DNA of 64,000 nucleotides from a virus: IMG/VR virus record IMGVR_UViG_3300045391_004297, positions 13,037-77,036 of that record. One strand, written 5' to 3'. A program made the position numbers and the translations under genes. Every line of letters begins with the position of its first letter. The first letter of the stretch is position 1. Below are positions 1,171-59,465 of this stretch, piece by piece. The notes beneath the pieces were generated by a model. It made no database searches and was not told the DNA's origin. It worked only from the letters and a program-made list of their open reading frames with translations.

Positions 1171-1686
1171 ATGCCCAATAGTCGCAATGCTCGGCGTCAG
1201 GACACGGTGATTTACCGCAATGCCGTTGGCCAGACATTCGCGTTGCCGGTTTTGCAAGACACCAAGGCTGCTTCAACTGCGCCTGCCACAAGTACTTCCA
1301 CGACTGGTGGTACGTTGGCGGCTGGTACGTATTCGTACCGGATTGCTTGGTTGTACGGTACGTTGGTTTCTGCGCCAAGTCCGGCAAAAACACAAGTGAC
1401 CACTGGTGCTACGTCGACTGTGACGGTTGATGTGACTGGTCTTGCTCCAGCGGGTGCTACGCAGTGGCGAGTTTATGGTCGTACGTCGGGTTCTGAGTTG
1501 TTGATGGGTACCCAAAACCTTCCTGGTACGTTGACTTTTGTTGATGATGGTTCAGGTACACCAAGCGGGGCGCTGCCGACAGATACCGGGAATGTGAATT
1601 TGAACGGTTTTTCCGCGCCGAATCTGACCAATGTGGCCCGTCTGACGACAATGCGGGGCACCACACCGGGCTATTTTAACCGGTAA
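1171..1686 (+). CDS. virion accessory protein with FN3/Ig-like domain
   Basis: GGTLAAGTYSYR...TGATSTVTV...ATQWRVYGRT resembles the N-terminal domain of the tail tube (14118). Confidence 0.65.
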   Translation: MPNSRNARRQDTVIYRNAVGQTFALPVLQDTKAASTAPATSTSTTGGTLAAGTYSYRIAWLYGTLVSAPSPAKTQVTTGATSTVTVDVTGLAPAGATQWRVYGRTSGSELLMGTQNLPGTLTFVDDGSGTPSGALPTDTGNVNLNGFSAPNLTNVARLTTMRGTTPGYFNR

Positions 1687-1692
1687 AACTCC

Positions 1693-2130
1693 TGACTCTC
1701 CTAAACGTCCCGCCTTTTTGACTTTCCTGTCCGATTACTGGTCTACCGCTACGTCTGACTATGCTCCCCACAACGACGCCCGACGTACCTCCACCTGACA
1801 CAACCTGACTTTCCAAACCGCACCATCCGATTTCTGACTGGAGCCAACCTACACCTTCCAAATTACTGACCGAGCAAACCGCGACATGACGCGTCGTGGC
1901 TGACTTGCCATGTTCTCACCAGAACCCACCGTCACCGACGACCCACCCGAACTTCACTGGCCTTACAAACTGACCATCCTGTACGACTTCCAAACCAAAA
2001 ACCGACGGACCCGTACACCGCCACACTTTTCCGACATGACCACGAAACCCTAGACAAGGCGTGTCATGACGCACCTCCCGCCCCTCTCACGTTCGACAAA
2101 GCTCCCCACGCCACACACTCACCATCTCAG
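1693..2130 (+). repeat. periodic non-coding array 1 (GAC-anchored units, C every 5th nt)
   Basis: C at every 5th base 1759-1824 (14 in a row), 1870-1900 (7), 2006-2031 (6), 2050-2075 (6); recurrent TGAC; G-poor + strand. Confidence 0.8.
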
Positions 2131-2211
2131 GTGACAAGTGCTTGCGGCGCCGAGGCGTAAAGTCCAAGATCATTTCCTTCCCACCAACCACAATTTCCCA
2201 AAGGATGTGAC

Positions 2212-2493
2212 ATGCTCCCGGTGTGGGACTTGCGAAATAGGTTCACCCTGCATCAGACGAGTGCCGAAAATGCGCAAAAGCGGGAATTGATTCGTAGTAT
2301 TGCGCATTCTTACGCTACAGTGATCAATGAGACTGTCCCGGATTGTCGGGAAAAGAACCTCGCGATCACGAAGTTGGAGGAAGTGGTGTTCTGGGCGAAC
2401 GCCGCACTTGCTCGGTACGACGCCGCGAAAAACGAAGATCAAGCCTGGCAGCATAAAGAAGAGCCGAAGCCAACGCAGAACAGGACGATGTGA
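2212..2493 (+). CDS. Acb2/Tad1-family anti-defence sponge protein
   Basis: RFTLH...IR..A...I....P.CREKNLAITKLEEVVFWANAALAR matches the Acb2/Tad1-type signature as recalled. Confidence 0.75.
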   Translation: MLPVWDLRNRFTLHQTSAENAQKRELIRSIAHSYATVINETVPDCREKNLAITKLEEVVFWANAALARYDAAKNEDQAWQHKEEPKPTQNRTM

Positions 2494-2587: not shown

Positions 2588-3301
2588 TTGTCAGCATGTC
2601 ACGAAGGGAACGAAGTAGTGGCAACTGATTTGAAGTATGGTCGCATCGAGTTTCCAGATGCGCCATGGTCTACGATCGAGGCGGATGAGCCGGTTTTTGT
2701 GTTTCGGGCTCGGGATAATCTGACCCCGGAAGTGATCAAGTTTTATCGGATGTTGTGCGTGCAGAGTAAGTCTCCGCAGCACCATTTGGATTTGATTGAT
2801 CGTGGGTTGCGGCAGGTGAAGGCTTGGCAGCAGTCGCATGAGGTCAAAGATCCGACGTCCAATGATTGGTTGGCGGCGCAAACGTCAGACCCGGTACATA
2901 ATCCCAATACGGAACCGTTGCAAACCACGAACGACGCCGTGATTACTGATGTTCCGTCGTCAGAGCAACGTGATCGGCTTGATCCGACGCATGAGTGGTA
3001 TCTGACGGAGACAAACCAAGACCAGGCTACGAACGCGGAAACATCCACAAATGAAGAAACGTCAGACGAAGAGGAAAGTTACCTTCCGGGTTCCGACGCG
3101 GCCCATTATGTTCCGCCGAATCCGAACAATCCGCAGTCTATTGATTTCTACGAAGAAGACGAGTCAGCGACAAAGATCCGAAACGATTTTGAAACCGGTG
3201 TGCAAGGCAAGACGCAACGAATCGCACCAGGAGATGCTACCGAAAATCCAACCAACCCAACCTACGTTCAAGATCCACTTGATGGTCTTGAGTCACGATG
3301 A
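2588..3301 (+). CDS. hypothetical protein (DEPVF..RA.D N-terminal domain, acidic disordered tail)
   Basis: 237-aa ORF; start may be the GTG before ATDLKYG. Confidence 0.65.
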   Translation: MSACHEGNEVVATDLKYGRIEFPDAPWSTIEADEPVFVFRARDNLTPEVIKFYRMLCVQSKSPQHHLDLIDRGLRQVKAWQQSHEVKDPTSNDWLAAQTSDPVHNPNTEPLQTTNDAVITDVPSSEQRDRLDPTHEWYLTETNQDQATNAETSTNEETSDEEESYLPGSDAAHYVPPNPNNPQSIDFYEEDESATKIRNDFETGVQGKTQRIAPGDATENPTNPTYVQDPLDGLESR

Positions 3302-3519
3302 GCGTTTATAATCCGACTGGTTCAGGCAATGTCCATATGGACGCATCGATTTCAGGAGGTAAGAAGGTGGCTGCGAAAAAGGCTGCGGTGAAGAAGGCTT
3401 CCGGCAACACCGCGAAGGCGGTCAAGTCCGCCACGAAGACCACGAAGGGTAATGCGGCGAAGTCCACGGCTTCGAAGATGGCGCCGGGGATGAAGACGCA
3501 CGGCGGACCGAACTGCTGA
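3298..3519 (+). CDS. small Lys/Ala-rich protein with capsid-like N-terminus
   Basis: AAKKAAVKKA histone-like tract; MSVYNPTGSGNVHMD resembles MCP start. Confidence 0.7.
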   Translation: MSVYNPTGSGNVHMDASISGGKKVAAKKAAVKKASGNTAKAVKSATKTTKGNAAKSTASKMAPGMKTHGGPNC

Positions 3520-4386: not shown

Positions 4387-4635
4387 ATGGCGTTGTATTG
4401 GGAAGTAAGCTTCCGGGTTTCTGCTGGGCAGGATCGATTGACCCGGTACGGTGAGGTCAAGCAGGCCCATCCGGTCCCGCAAGAATGTGTTGATGATGAG
4501 GCTCAGGCACATCAACAAATTGAAGACCAGATCGCTACCGATGGTGAGCCGACCAAGCCATACGCGATTTACACCCAAGGCTGGCGCGATGGGGTAGCTT
4601 TCGGATTCAATGCTCGTATCGATCCCAACGCCTGA
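4387..4635 (+). CDS. hypothetical protein
   Basis: GAGGA RBS, 82 aa. Confidence 0.55.
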   Translation: MALYWEVSFRVSAGQDRLTRYGEVKQAHPVPQECVDDEAQAHQQIEDQIATDGEPTKPYAIYTQGWRDGVAFGFNARIDPNA

Positions 4636-4850
4636 CTGTCCTGCACTGCTGTTCCCTCGATCCAAACTGCCCGATCCTTGCGACTATCCTCCCCAATTTC
4701 CGTCCTCACTGACTAAACTCCGCCACCCGTCCCACTTCGATTGACTATCCTTGGCATACCCTTCCACATCAACAACTTGACTATCCTTCGCAGTCCCGCC
4801 CACCGCGACTATACTTTTCCCCCCGCATCTTTCCAACCCAACACGACACG
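4634..4850 (+). repeat. periodic non-coding array 2
   Basis: units start GACT at 4634,4682,4711,4743,4779,4807; 5-nt C runs 4713-4738, 4745-4770, 4781-4806, 4809-4849. Confidence 0.85.
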
Positions 4851-4868
4851 TTCACCAGGGAGGAAAAT

Positions 4869-6395
4869 ATGGCCGCGCATCAACCCACACCGGGCGATGA
4901 AGAAGACAGCGAGCCGGAAGGTACGCCCACCCCAGAGGGTATGGAGACGCAGGCTGTTCGGGCCAAAAAACTGGAGCGGTTGTACAACATTGACAAGTTT
5001 CGGTACTTTGACCTGATTGGTTATAAGCCGCACCCGAAGCAGTTGTTGTTTCACCGGTCCACGGCGCGCTTCAAGATCCCGATTTGTGGGCGTCGATTCG
5101 GCAAATCCCAGATGGCGGCCAAAGAGTACGAGCCGTTGCTGCTGATTCCGAATCGACGATATTGGATTGTCGGGCCGACCTATGACCTGGGCGAAAAAGA
5201 GTTCCGGATTATCTGGAACGACATGATCATCAAGCTTGGCCTTGGCAAGGAAAAAGATGTCAAGCGGTCATATGCTAAGAAGCAGGGCGATCTATCCATC
5301 GAGTTTCCCTGGCGTACTCGTATTGAGGTTCGTTCGGCAGATCGACCGGAGAATCTGGTCGGCGAGGGTCTTCATGGCGTCATCATGTCCGAGGCCGCTA
5401 AGCACACCCAGGACACTTGGGATCGCTTTATCCGGCCATCCCTCACTGACTACCGTGGTTCGGCGATTTTCCCAACGACACCGGAAGGCCAGAACTGGAT
5501 CTACAACCTGTGGAAGATGGGTCGTGATCCGCAAGAGCCGGAGTTTGAGTCCTGGCAGTTCCCGAGTTGGGAAAACCCGTACGTCTACCCCAAGGGAAAG
5601 CTCGACCCGGAAATCCTGCTGACCATGCGCACCACTCCGAAAGAAGAGTTCCTTCAGGAGTATGCGGCGGACTTCACCTCATTTGCCGGTAAGGTGTATG
5701 GCGAGTGGGACGAAGCGGTGCACGTGCAAGAGGTCAAGTACAATCCGCTGCTGCCCAACTACATCGCTTTTGACTGGGGTTGGGCTGCCCCGATGGCCGC
5801 TGTGGAGTTTCAAATTGACAGCTTTGGTCGGTGCCGGGTGTGGCGGGAGCACTACAAAACACACACGCGGTTGAAGGACTTTCTCAACGAATTGAAAAGC
5901 CGGCCACAGCCGCCGGATTACCATTTGAATTTGACCTTTGGCGACGCTGCCGATCCTGAGGCTGTCGTTTCTGTCTCGGAAGACTTCGCGCCCTGTGTGG
6001 GCGACCCTCGCTCCAAGACCGGCACCCAGGGTGGGTCGTTGGAGTCTGGTAAGCGCGAAGGTATCGAGCTGGTCAAGGGTCTGCTAATGTTGCAGCAGGT
6101 CGATGAGGATGAGTTCGGCACGCCGATCGAGATGCCCTGGTTGACCGTGGATCATTCGTGTTACAACCTAATCCGGGAGTTCAATAATTACCGCAACCAA
6201 GACCCGGTGCGTGGGCAAGACCCACGAGAGCAAACCTTCAAAAAGGATGATCACGCCCTGGATGCGCTGCGTTACGGGTTGATGCATGTGCTGAAGCTCG
6301 GCGCCACCATGAGTTTAGGTGATGTGATGGATCTTTCGGATATGCATGACACGCCAGCTTCTGGCTACTTCACCACGAACAAGACCTTTGCTTGA
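4869..6395 (+). CDS. terL: terminase large subunit
   Basis: CGRRFGKS Walker A, GVIMSE Walker B-like, RuvC-like nuclease with FDWG and KKDDHALDALRY. Confidence 0.95.
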   Translation: MAAHQPTPGDEEDSEPEGTPTPEGMETQAVRAKKLERLYNIDKFRYFDLIGYKPHPKQLLFHRSTARFKIPICGRRFGKSQMAAKEYEPLLLIPNRRYWIVGPTYDLGEKEFRIIWNDMIIKLGLGKEKDVKRSYAKKQGDLSIEFPWRTRIEVRSADRPENLVGEGLHGVIMSEAAKHTQDTWDRFIRPSLTDYRGSAIFPTTPEGQNWIYNLWKMGRDPQEPEFESWQFPSWENPYVYPKGKLDPEILLTMRTTPKEEFLQEYAADFTSFAGKVYGEWDEAVHVQEVKYNPLLPNYIAFDWGWAAPMAAVEFQIDSFGRCRVWREHYKTHTRLKDFLNELKSRPQPPDYHLNLTFGDAADPEAVVSVSEDFAPCVGDPRSKTGTQGGSLESGKREGIELVKGLLMLQQVDEDEFGTPIEMPWLTVDHSCYNLIREFNNYRNQDPVRGQDPREQTFKKDDHALDALRYGLMHVLKLGATMSLGDVMDLSDMHDTPASGYFTTNKTFA

Positions 6396-6580
6396 CTACC
6401 CCCTACACAACAACACCTTGCTTGACTATCCCACGCACGCCAGGACTGACTTCTCTGACTATCCGCGTCCCGCTCGCCCAGTTTCGCCGCTACTCTGCCG
6501 ACACACCTAGCCCACTGCATAACACACCAAAGCAACCGACTGCCCGCCTCCCTAGCCTCCCTAGCCTCCCTCGCCGTAAG
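6394..6580 (+). repeat. periodic non-coding array 3
   Basis: CTTGACTA at 6391 and 6421; C every 5th base 6396-6446 (11 in a row); GCCTCCCTA x~3 at the end. Confidence 0.8.
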
Positions 6581-8447: not shown

Positions 8448-8687
8448 ATGGCAGAGGATCGGCCCCGCAAACCGTATCGTAAAGAGCGGGTTGTTTCGAT
8501 TCGGTTCAGCGAAGACGAACTACGCGGTTTGCGGGAACGGGCCGACAAAGCCCATATGAGCCTGTCGGATTACATCCGAACCCGAATGAACTACGATCCG
8601 TTGATGTACCGTACTTTTGTGCCCGCCCAATCCAACACCTACACGATTGGCACTTCTTCGGTTACCTCAACGTTCATTTACCAATGA
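8448..8687 (+). CDS. ribbon-helix-helix (MobC-like) DNA-binding protein
   Basis: VSIRFSEDEL..LRERA.KAHMSLSDYIR. Confidence 0.75.
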   Translation: MAEDRPRKPYRKERVVSIRFSEDELRGLRERADKAHMSLSDYIRTRMNYDPLMYRTFVPAQSNTYTIGTSSVTSTFIYQ

Positions 8688-8860
8688 CGTGGCTACCCGC
8701 CCAATGGCACATCCCGAGCTGACTACCCGCCGTACGCCATCCCCAGCGAGCTGACATGCCCCGGCCAAACACGAGCATCCCAAGGCACGCTTACTGACTT
8801 AACACGGCACCACTACCCACCTCTTGTCCACAGACCCCCGCATAAAGCCCAACGCTAGAC
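8686..8860 (+). repeat. periodic non-coding array 4
   Basis: TGAC-anchored units with GAC at 8686,8721,8753,8796; C every 5th base 8798-8828 (7); internal repeats CTACCCGCC and CGAGCTGAC. Confidence 0.7.
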
Positions 8861-8973
8861 CCCAAAAAATTTTTGCCTAAATCCGGAAACGTGTCCTTTT
8901 GGCACTTTCCGGATTTTGCATAGCAAGATCATCGATGTCATACATGACGCCCGCCCGACTGGAGGTTTTGTCG

Positions 8974-48380: not shown

Positions 48381-48408
48381 CTTCCTTTCGGCCGAAATTA
48401 GTGATGCG

Positions 48409-48499
48409 TGCCCCGACCTGGAATCGAACCAGGAACACCTACGCCTAAAGGCCAACGGGATTGGTTACCCGCCGTGCTCTGCCATTGAGCTATCGGGGC
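48409..48499 (-). ncRNA. aberrant tRNA-like RNA
   Basis: GCCCCGA/TCGGGGC acceptor, GCTC-AATGGCA-GAGC D arm, CCTGG-TTCGATT-CCAGG T arm; 7-bp anticodon stem, 8-nt loop, extra hairpin. Confidence 0.75.
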
Positions 48500-48506
48500 G
48501 ACCTTG

Positions 48507-49394
48507 CTAAACGGCTTTCCAGTCGGTGACTTCGTACTTGCCGTAACCCTGCGAGCGCGAAGCGCCGATACCCTGCTGCTCCCCGGTGAGCCACAGCAGG
48601 GCCCACTCTTTGTCGGAGAAGTCGTAGTCGGTGGTCACGTGGAATTCCAGCACCGCGTTTTCCACGTACTCTTCGTACTGGATGCCAGAACCCCGGAAGG
48701 TGTGCACGAAGCGCTGGTTGATCCCAGTGGGCTCACCCTTGACCGGCTCGTTGAGGTAGATGCGCGTCTCGGGCACGAACACGTGCTCAGCGAAGAACGA
48801 CAATGTGCCCTTGCGGGTCGGACCCCAACGCTCCTTGGGCCAACGCACATTCGCCGCTTCCTTGATGGCGGCCTTGGCCTGGCGACCCTCGATGTACAGG
48901 CCGTTTTTGGGATCACGCTTGAACCCGTTGAGGTGCTTGTTCATGTTGACGATCTTGGTGGCTTCGTTGATGTCCACGCCCTTGTCGAGCATGACCTCAG
49001 CGACCATTTCGCGGATGACGTCTTCCTTGTCCACGCCAAGCTTGGTCTTGAGCCAACCTTCGGCAACCTTCGGGTCAGACGGGGTACCACCGGCGATGAC
49101 CGGGACCGTCAACTGGATGCGGAAGTTGTACGGGTACGCGGTCGGGCGGTACTGTTCGAAGACAGATGCCACAGTGGGCTGTCCTTTCTGGATACGGTCA
49201 ATCAGTTCTTGGTTTGGTGCTGGTGGATTTGGATCGACCCGATTGAACCAAACCTCCTCAACAACAGGTTTCGTCGTTGTTTTGCGTTTTGGCTTCGGCT
49301 TTTCCTCGATCTCAGGTTCCACTGTTTCGAGTTCGGGATCGACAGCTCGGCTGGACCGATTGCTGCGCGTCCTGGCGGTGACGAATTCCACCAT
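48507..49394 (-). CDS. stand-alone Cas7/RAMP-like protein
   Basis: LYIEGRQAKAAIKEAA (RAMP IPG..KG..R equivalent), thumb-like GINQRFVHTFRGSGIQYEE, C-terminal Gly loop GIGASRSQGYGKYEV. Confidence 0.8.
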   Translation of the reverse strand: MVEFVTARTRSNRSSRAVDPELETVEPEIEEKPKPKRKTTTKPVVEEVWFNRVDPNPPAPNQELIDRIQKGQPTVASVFEQYRPTAYPYNFRIQLTVPVIAGGTPSDPKVAEGWLKTKLGVDKEDVIREMVAEVMLDKGVDINEATKIVNMNKHLNGFKRDPKNGLYIEGRQAKAAIKEAANVRWPKERWGPTRKGTLSFFAEHVFVPETRIYLNEPVKGEPTGINQRFVHTFRGSGIQYEEYVENAVLEFHVTTDYDFSDKEWALLWLTGEQQGIGASRSQGYGKYEVTDWKAV

Positions 49395-49408: not shown

Positions 49409-50077
49409 CTATTGGTTTGTCAGACGTTCATCCGGCTCGGGAAAAGCGTGGTGCCGGTCGTCTTGGCGGACCCGAGCTGAACGAGTTTTGGGCGATGTGC
49501 GCTTCGCCTCTTTTGTTTCCTTTGCCAGCGAAGCATCCGAGATTGACATCCACATCTGGGCAAGACGCTGCTCATCGTAAATGTCAGCAACCGTCTTGGT
49601 CGGATCGTCGTCCAACCGTCGGGCCAGCACATTCAAAAACGCCGCTTGCATGGCGTTTTGATCGGCTCGCTTCTGGTAGGAATCTGCCACAAAGTGCAGA
49701 TCTTTCGCGGTCATTTGAGACAGTCGCTTGCGCAGCCCGTCAGCGGTCACGTGCACCATAGCGAAGAATCCGCCGAGTGCTTCGTTGTCGCCTTCGCTGA
49801 ACTTTTTGGCTGCCTCGTTGAAAGCCATCCGATTTGCGTTGCGCCGCACATGCGTGCGCAGTGAGGCGTCTCGGCGATTGATCGCTGTTCGCACAACTTC
49901 TTTGGCTTGGAACAAAAGCCAACCGATGAGCAGGTCTTTGTCAGTTTCTGTCAGTTTGCGCACGATTTCAGCGGCGATGTTGGCTGAGTTGTAAGCACCT
50001 TCAGCCGTGTATTCATCGATCATTCGCCGCATTTCGAGGGCGTAGTTGCGATAGTAGATAGGTTCGTCTGCGGCCAT
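49409..50077 (-). CDS. helical hypothetical protein upstream of Cas7-like gene
   Basis: 222 aa, AAAGG RBS; 14-nt gap to next gene. Confidence 0.7.
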   Translation of the reverse strand: MAADEPIYYRNYALEMRRMIDEYTAEGAYNSANIAAEIVRKLTETDKDLLIGWLLFQAKEVVRTAINRRDASLRTHVRRNANRMAFNEAAKKFSEGDNEALGGFFAMVHVTADGLRKRLSQMTAKDLHFVADSYQKRADQNAMQAAFLNVLARRLDDDPTKTVADIYDEQRLAQMWMSISDASLAKETKEAKRTSPKTRSARVRQDDRHHAFPEPDERLTNQ

Positions 50078-50102: not shown

Positions 50103-50129
50103 TTACCCAGGCAAGCCCAACCAGACCGG
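50103..50129 (-). repeat. GGY-NN pentamer run in operon leader
   Basis: minus strand CC GGT CT GGT TG GGC TT GCC TG GGT AA. Confidence 0.6.
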
Positions 50130-59139: not shown

Positions 59140-59465
59140 CGTCGGGTAAGGCGGGATTCGTGTCTCTGGCTGGGTCGGAAAGTCAAAAAGGCAGTCGCCG
59201 TTGTCCGCTTTTGTTCGACTGCAAAAGAGCCGTCATGGTTTTGGGACGACTCGAATAAATCAAGATTCAGTAAACCATTCAGTTCTCAAGAAACCGCGAC
59301 TTTCGGTAAGAGATGGTCCCTGCATCGCGCGGGGAGTCCCTGACCCGTCGTGCTAGTACCCACCCTAGCTCGGCTGACGAAGGTCGTCAACCCTGTTGAT
59401 CGAGTGGATCGATCGTGTCTGGTATGTCCGTTTTGTCTGAGTCATCGGGGGTGGGCACAGTCAAT
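59140..59465 (-). repeat. non-coding block related to periodic arrays (array 5)
   Basis: minus strand C-rich TGACT units; 16-nt GCCTTTTTGACTTTCC identical to 1712-1727; periodicity weaker. Confidence 0.55.

Follow-up and report, generated by a model that had tools for sequence, protein, structure and literature searches.

We analysed a window of 64,000 bp, bases 13037-77036 of the 92,387-bp IMG/VR phage record IMGVR_UViG_3300045391_004297. The phage is siphovirus-like and was detected in soil metagenomes of six studies or more, and its host is probably an actinobacterium; the public RNA runs checked for it gave no match. Near the left end of the window, two genes of the + strand are separated by a 525-nt spacer, referred to here as Array 1 (Table 1). 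This strand of the spacer is rich in C (0.38) and poor in G (0.17). A clear lattice of pentamers extends from about position 1694 to 2135, the remainder up to 2211 being degenerate, and the 3′ end of the array is the Shine-Dalgarno site of the downstream gene. Array 1 matched no Rfam family (E up to 5), a scan of the whole window returning tRNAs only, and neither an intrinsic terminator nor a promoter consensus accounts for the block. BLAST against cultured phages, with the window start and one high-GC array as queries, gave no match, and an exact-anchor scan with two TGACTATCC anchors gave matches at chance level only.

Other features were observed in the vicinity. Short repeats (CATATG/TATGTAC, GGGTATAG, TGTCCGGATTT) form a dense mosaic at positions 100-480, where the leftward and rightward gene arms diverge; this could be an origin, or a region for packaging or control. 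At the corresponding place (2850-3100), the closest relative (L002) carries a different mosaic of repeats (GACATAGC). Upstream of the first rightward genes, the operator-like motif TGTCGAT(T/A)TTCG(T/A)CAC is present three times (523-540, 561-578 and 1106-1124). Positions 3298-3519 encode a small histone-like protein of 73 aa, rich in lysine and alanine, which has a relative in L002.

Table 1. Genes, arrays and promoter-like sites discussed in the text (window coordinates)
Feature	Position	Strand	Description
Upstream flanking gene	1171..1686	+	171 aa; counterpart in closest relative L002 at 4538-5050
Array 1	1687..2211	C-rich on +	Intergenic pentamer array, 525 nt, 25 GAC anchors, 79 pentamers
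Downstream flanking gene	2212..2493	+	93 aa; phrog_1454
Array 2	4634..4850	+	Directly upstream of terL; cleanest lattice, 86% C at fifth place
Promoter-like site	4836 to 4808	-	Right edge of Array 2
Array 3	6394..6580	+	Between terL and portal; 72% C at fifth place
Array 4	8686..8860	+	After portal region; 69% C at fifth place
Promoter-like site	8941 to 8913	-	Right of Array 4
vipr	48507..49394	-	295-aa Cas7/Csm3-like RAMP (predicted fold); N-terminal extension of ~70 aa, poorly conserved
vap-like accessory gene	49409..50077	-	222 aa, helical, phrog_4604; directly upstream of vipr
GGYNN-like pentamers x5	50103..50129	-	Run within the vap-vipr leader, sense strand

A five-base lattice in Array 1 and its sister arrays

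The original prediction had placed a C at every fifth position of Array 1 for 14 steps (1759-1824), followed by shorter runs of 7 (1870-1900), 6 (2006-2031) and 6 (2050-2075). All four runs were recovered at these coordinates, and in 1870-1900 each of the seven triplets whose last base is the periodic C reads RNC in the layout. In first-order Markov simulations of the block, runs of at least 14 C were rare, arising in 0.08% of cases when step 5 alone was considered and in 0.8% when all steps from 2 to 12 were allowed. A periodogram taken over the whole of Array 1 was flat at period 5, because the phase is reset at each GAC. With registers counted from GAC, C was found at 59% of fifth positions against 29-44% in the others, and this lattice is among the more degenerate of the genome. 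The reset does not amount to the shift of about 1 nt that had been suggested. Spacings between anchors fall on 3+5k and 4+5k, and GAC is therefore an insert of 3 or 4 nt (GAC or YGAC) in the pentamer lattice.

Sister arrays had been expected elsewhere in the genome, and we found 11 clear intergenic blocks and 1 weak block, which together amount to 5.3 kb, 5.7% of the 92-kb phage, and carry about 220 anchors. They are built of pentamers ending in C or CC with GAC punctuation. In every block, on both gene arms, the flanking genes have the C-rich, G-poor strand as their sense strand. Only the 3-5 nt anchor and every fifth base are common to the units. The weak block, at 59140-59465, had been taken for an array of flipped orientation; we counted it as the twelfth, with the proviso that its composition (C 0.30, G 0.24) and its share of pentamers ending in C (35%) set it apart as a poor example. 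Array 1 is the longest array in the window, as claimed, yet among the less regular, and a block of about 1.9 kb spanning the ends of the record exceeds it in the genome. The 'direct terminal repeat' of the record, 69 nt long, lies inside an array (G000 1-1160 and 91581-92387, outside the window) and is probably an assembly overlap; the two end blocks therefore probably form a single array, which at about 1.9 kb would be the largest of the genome. A 9-nt triplication closes Array 3. Just past Array 4 and beside the minus-strand promoter-like site, an inverted repeat (AAATCCGGAAA...TTTCCGGATTT) was observed at 8880-8918, and the word TCCGGATTT occurs additionally at 80-90 and 465-475.

The same periodicity was apparent when blocks were pooled. 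YGAC anchors inside the blocks of this genome are spaced with a mode of 29-30 nt, and the profile aligned on YGAC showed C peaks at +8 (0.83), +13 (0.72), +18 and +23. Compared with second-order Markov controls, the pooled C autocorrelation gave z values of 8.0 at lag 5, 6.1 at lag 10, 4.0 at lag 20 and 5.3 at lag 29, which were unchanged when the focal block was left out. The + strand of Array 1 folds no better than shuffles (-68 kcal/mol, z 0.08; complement -126 kcal/mol). Its description as G-poor and largely unstructured was thus accurate in composition and folding, but it presumes that the + strand is the RNA. The central proposal, a non-coding array of short anchor-headed units on a 5-nt lattice, is supported.

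Five IMG/VR relatives share 64-80% TerL identity with this phage, and no comparable block was found in any of the relatives. In L002, both genes flanking Array 1 are present but stand only 193 nt apart with no array between them, and the orthologous spacer contains a (CCCAAT)5 microsatellite. The three-pentamer anchor pattern had 50 matches in this genome against 3 in the control, and 3 in a complete 81-kb relative. A strain from another soil study (X6), about 97-98% identical, carries in its Array 1 a 20-nt insertion after 1863, which adds a CTGAC-headed unit, and a 14-nt deletion at 1812; its Array 3 has a 9-nt deletion. Inter-strain changes numbered 6 in the 525 nt of Array 1 versus 12 in the neighbouring gene. 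Turnover of units in related phages, proposed as a check, was therefore seen between strains as the indels of X6, whereas the distant relatives do without both the arrays and the gene described below.

A Cas7-like gene associated with the arrays

We scanned IMG/VR by DNA pattern alone, using three successive degenerate units, in two scans that each returned at least 118 loci. Among the matches listed, 106 arrays in 85 other phage loci passed the tests of C>G skew, anchor density and lag-5 maximum. The array-bearing phages among these matches mostly have 61-70% GC, with an overall range of 30-72%. Across 2431 units taken from 104 arrays of other phages, the lattice of CC at 5-nt intervals persists beyond 50 nt on either side of the anchor, and it is in these arrays that the anchor spacings of 3+5k and 4+5k were measured.

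To find genes linked to this pattern, all ORFs of the phage were compared by tblastn with the pattern-fetched loci. The 295-aa ORF that we call vipr had homologs in at least 36 of them, at 29-62% identity and adjoining the array, and homologs of the 222-aa ORF were present in at least 16 of the array loci, alongside vipr homologs. Array orientation was scored relative to the vipr homolog: among the matches listed, the C-rich strand was co-oriented with it in 52 of 60 arrays within 1.5 kb. The array most often starts no more than 100 nt from the stop codon of the vipr homolog. In the reverse test, loci were fetched from bacterial genomes by protein only, and all 12 (11 actinobacterial, and one Burkholderiaceae MAG) had an adjacent, periodic and co-oriented array. 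The one cultured match was the Microcystis phage Mae-JY09 (L268, PP395641.1 37713-38900), in which a vipr homolog annotated as hypothetical precedes an array of about 400 nt that lacks annotation, with a strong hairpin after it.

The fold of Vipr was predicted with AF2 from 29 homologs (pLDDT 78). The top Foldseek matches of the model were type VII Cas7, Csm3, Cmr4 and Cas7-11 domains (E 1e-7; 158 matches at E≤0.001). A second aligner (VIA) gave Z up to 11.5, for Csm3, with CRISPR RAMPs filling about the top 38 rows, and PADLOC returned a weak Csm3 match. Vipr homologs share a conserved C-terminal loop, G.GA.RSQGYG. Taken together, two-way co-occurrence and fold support the proposed tie between the arrays and a lone Cas7-like gene. 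The vap-like protein had no fold match in the PDB and no family beyond phrog_4604. Neither gene was found in the array-less relatives (G001-G004), in which the neighbouring genes are conserved.

Searches of the 92-kb genome for Cas1 and for Pfam RAMP matches found neither. The phage has no repeat-spacer array, Cas5, Cas6 or Cas10, and the Rfam scan of the window was without a CRISPR family. Its vipr gene has no flanking arrays, the nearest one being at least 40 kb away. Directly after vipr, at 48408-48499, ARAGORN identified a 92-nt tRNA-like gene with a four-base anticodon (acca). Ten tRNA genes lie between 48.4 and 57.6 kb.

Relation to VIPR and candidate targets

The Viral Interference Programmable Repeat (VIPR) is a CRISPR-like, RNA-guided system, mostly phage-borne and aimed at competing phages, which consists of a minimal RAMP (Vipr) built from an RRM core, a thumb and a glycine-rich loop, an accessory gene (vap, published as vap1-6) and pentanucleotide vrRNAs (bioRxiv 10.64898/2026.04.26.720920). 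The vrRNAs contain 9-16 YNNGG pentamers, other types using NNNGG, YNNNG or NNNNG, so that every published type is G-based; they guide binding to dsDNA through the NN dinucleotides, one target base being skipped (bioRxiv 10.64898/2026.04.26.720920). VIPR arrays occupy long intergenic regions flanking vipr, and vrRNAs co-purify with Vipr (bioRxiv 10.64898/2026.04.26.720920). Seven types have been distinguished, 'staggered' arrays among them, and the mechanism was tested mainly in type II systems, from an E. coli phage and a Pseudomonas prophage (bioRxiv 10.64898/2026.04.26.720920).

What we found fits VIPR, which was described in a preprint of June 2026 (bioRxiv 10.64898/2026.04.26.720920), and the feature is real but of a published kind, not a new one. 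Pentamers NNNCC and NNNNC of the + strand read GGNNN and GNNNN on the minus strand, as in VIPR repeats; the fold model and C-terminal loop agree with a RAMP, and its context is not that of CRISPR. Arrays flank vipr in the clade but not in this phage. We conclude that Array 1 very probably belongs to a set of about eleven guide-RNA arrays in a VIPR system of this phage.

We inspected the type II VIPR locus of Escherichia phage SUSP1 as a reference (NC_028808.2, 27500-29510). As here, it is phage-borne and combines a small stand-alone RAMP with a G-loop and one accessory gene (here a putative vap), lacks cas genes and CRISPR repeats, and has non-coding tandem pentamers in which one or two bases are fixed and the rest hypervariable. 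The in-silico matches described below likewise obey the VIPR rule of NN plus a 1-nt skip. The helix motif and G-loop of Vipr aligned with the 195-aa SUSP1 protein in hhalign, but weakly (probability 2%). The two systems differ in several respects. In SUSP1, the GGYNN pentamers are on the sense strand of vipr, which is thus the G-rich strand; in this phage the sense strand is NNNCC and the G-rich strand is antisense to vipr. SUSP1 produces RNAs of about 100 nt, each with 9-16 repeats, a structured 3′ tail and its own promoter, whereas units here have 4-8 pentamers and are closed by GAC only, with no tail. The SUSP1 arrays flank vipr, while those of this phage are scattered over about 11 sites, none adjoining vipr, an arrangement absent from the VIPR paper. 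Finally, the vap-like gene precedes vipr here, and Vipr has a 70-aa N-terminal extension.

Vipr also shares its RAMP fold (Z up to 11.5) with the backbone of Class 1 CRISPR-Cas (Csm3, Cmr4, type VII Cas7), and would share with it the periodic grip on a guide RNA. The lattice here is of 5 nt rather than 6, however, and the repeat-spacer array and Cas1, Cas5, Cas6 and Cas10 are missing. Instead of the near-identical direct repeats of 24-40 nt with unique spacers that make up a CRISPR array, the units are degenerate.

In this reading, Vipr, the accessory protein and the pentanucleotide arrays would form one system. In the mechanism published for VIPR, Vipr holds an RNA of tandem pentamers (YNNGG or NNNGG), the protein keeping the two constant Gs, and the variable NN of successive pentamers pair with dsDNA, with one target base skipped between pairs; binding silences genes of competing phages (bioRxiv 10.64898/2026.04.26.720920). 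Here, each unit comprises 4-8 pentamers ahead of a closing GAC (GTC on the opposite strand); as the variable bases are not the same from unit to unit, every unit would have a target of its own. We infer that Vipr binds RNA transcribed from the arrays, and that relatives of the phage are its natural targets.

Targets were sought with units having at least 70% of their pentamers in phase. From each pentamer in turn, two of its three variable bases were taken and strung into words with 0-3 wildcards between pairs, and exact matches in four relatives (357 kb, both strands counted) were compared with 500 shuffles of pentamer order. For positions 1-2 with a skip of 1, five matches were obtained with six pentamers (K=6) where 0.64 were expected (sd 0.79; p<0.002), small counts from the four relatives, and 33 with five pentamers (K=5) against 19.5 (sd 3.7; p<0.002). 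This was the only one of 24 combinations of position and skip to stand out, the others being flat. A wider unit set and two other nulls concurred (10 versus 3.3, p 0.001). Overall, the excess in the genomes of relatives under the NN plus 1-nt skip rule has a p of about 0.001-0.008, and individual targets are candidates only.

The excess was confined in scope. In-phase units had no excess of matches in the phage's own genome, and unrelated phage loci totalling 4.7 Mb gave none either. Taken together, all fetched loci (5 Mb) showed no overall excess, and five of the nine matched words fell in relatives, which form 7% of this set. Nor did units of other phages exceed expectation in the fetched loci, where their targets are probably absent. 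Array 1 by itself, with 5 usable units, gave no excess (1 match versus 1.9 expected). The skipped base at matched sites was not consistently phased with the codon wobble position, unlike in the VIPR paper (bioRxiv 10.64898/2026.04.26.720920). A possible target cluster is seen in one relative (G003; L037-L041, about 29.6-30.2 kb), where three different units have 1-nt-skip matches within 500 bp of a single 1021-aa ORF.

Guide strand and alternative readings

The gene context fits the + strand as RNA, and the target test fits the G-rich minus strand. VIPR targets are double-stranded, and the target search therefore tests the code, not the RNA strand directly. Positions 1-2 of the C-rich strand correspond to the NN of GG-Y-NN read on the G-rich strand, whereas a C-strand guide of the same layout would use positions 2-3, which were flat in the target test. 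The excess at positions 1-2 and its absence at 2-3 is therefore the main argument for a guide from the G-rich strand. The minus-strand promoter-like sites bordering Arrays 2 and 4 on the right also point to a G-rich guide. On balance, we lean towards the G-rich (minus) strand as the guide, antisense to the neighbouring genes, over the C-rich strand. As the G-rich strand is antisense to vipr, either the guides are antisense to every neighbouring gene, or the repeat in this clade is C-based.

The latter possibility corresponds to VIPR arrays whose C-rich sense RNA is co-transcribed with the neighbours, Vipr holding CC and not GG. Such a guide would account for the co-orientation of arrays with vipr (52 of 60, and 12 of 12) and with every flanking gene of this phage, as well as for the order vipr, array, strong hairpin in Mae-JY09 and some IMG/VR loci. 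In locus L056, moreover, the next gene follows the array by about 60 nt, leaving little room for an antisense promoter. It is at odds, however, with the published vrRNA types, all of them G-based (bioRxiv 10.64898/2026.04.26.720920), with the target excess at positions 1-2 and not 2-3, and with the promoter-like sites facing Arrays 2 and 4 from the right. We therefore regard a C-rich guide as a serious possibility, though not the one we expect to hold. Slightly more tentative is a composite architecture for the actinophage clade, in which the arrays, spread in this phage over about eleven intergenic sites including the terL-portal junction, would be antisense within the operons of the phage itself or C-based, one strand supplying guides against related phages and the other, as the G-poor portion of the phage messengers, acting as an inert or Rho-sensitive spacer. 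Such a dual-strand, dispersed architecture would be new relative to the VIPR description.

Two further explanations dispense with guides. The arrays could be very long rut sites that load host Rho on the messenger strand, for control of polarity or timing, or as a Rho sponge. Their sense strand resembles rut sites in its C>G bias, lack of structure beyond that of shuffles, YC at 5/10-nt spacing and untranslated position, and in this genome the arrays are always co-oriented with the flanking genes. The structure-derived Rho ligand occupies 10 nt per protomer with the consensus AAACCCAAUC (bioRxiv 10.1101/2022.08.29.505764). This consensus equals two pentamers each ending in YC, matching an NNNYC lattice. 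Yet a rut site is a stretch of about 60-80 nt, whereas the blocks measure 0.2-1.9 kb, carry GAC punctuation and show genetic linkage to a RAMP gene, and Rho binding leaves the punctuation, the two-way linkage to the Cas7-like gene and the code-specific target excess unexplained. In the relatives, moreover, the corresponding gene junctions lack elements of this kind. We consider this explanation improbable, but an effect on Rho may exist as a side effect of array orientation or as a role of the sense strand in phage messengers. Neutral filler, generated by slippage of a pentanucleotide microsatellite followed by decay and now without function, would be in keeping with the (CCCAAT)5 repeat in the orthologous spacer of the closest relative, the terminal triplication of Array 3 and the indels between strains. 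Only one or two of five positions are fixed while the others vary, however; among the matches listed, about 85 unrelated phages, spanning 30-72% GC, share the design beside one protein family, and the substitution rate of the array between strains is not above that of the neighbouring gene. This makes neutral filler very unlikely indeed.

Other candidates were dropped. A RecT-type 5-nt footprint (PMC9772228) was set aside because the phage has a Sak4-type annealase, and primase sites, Chi-like sites, promoter arrays, iterons and ToxI-like antitoxin arrays because no feature supported them.

Reading the arrays as guide-RNA arrays of a VIPR system, these results provide an independent sighting of VIPR logic in soil phages, with relatives of Vipr mostly in actinobacterial genomes. 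The VIPR description is only months old (bioRxiv 10.64898/2026.04.26.720920), and this phage and its clade extend it. With about 220 anchors and 5.3 kb of arrays wedged between essential genes, the phage is an extreme case, and the array strand, opposite to that of vipr, poses a concrete puzzle. The target test hints, in silico and for the first time, that this clade follows the 1-nt skip rule and that the targets are close relatives without the system. Genome annotation should no longer treat blocks of this kind as junk spacers.
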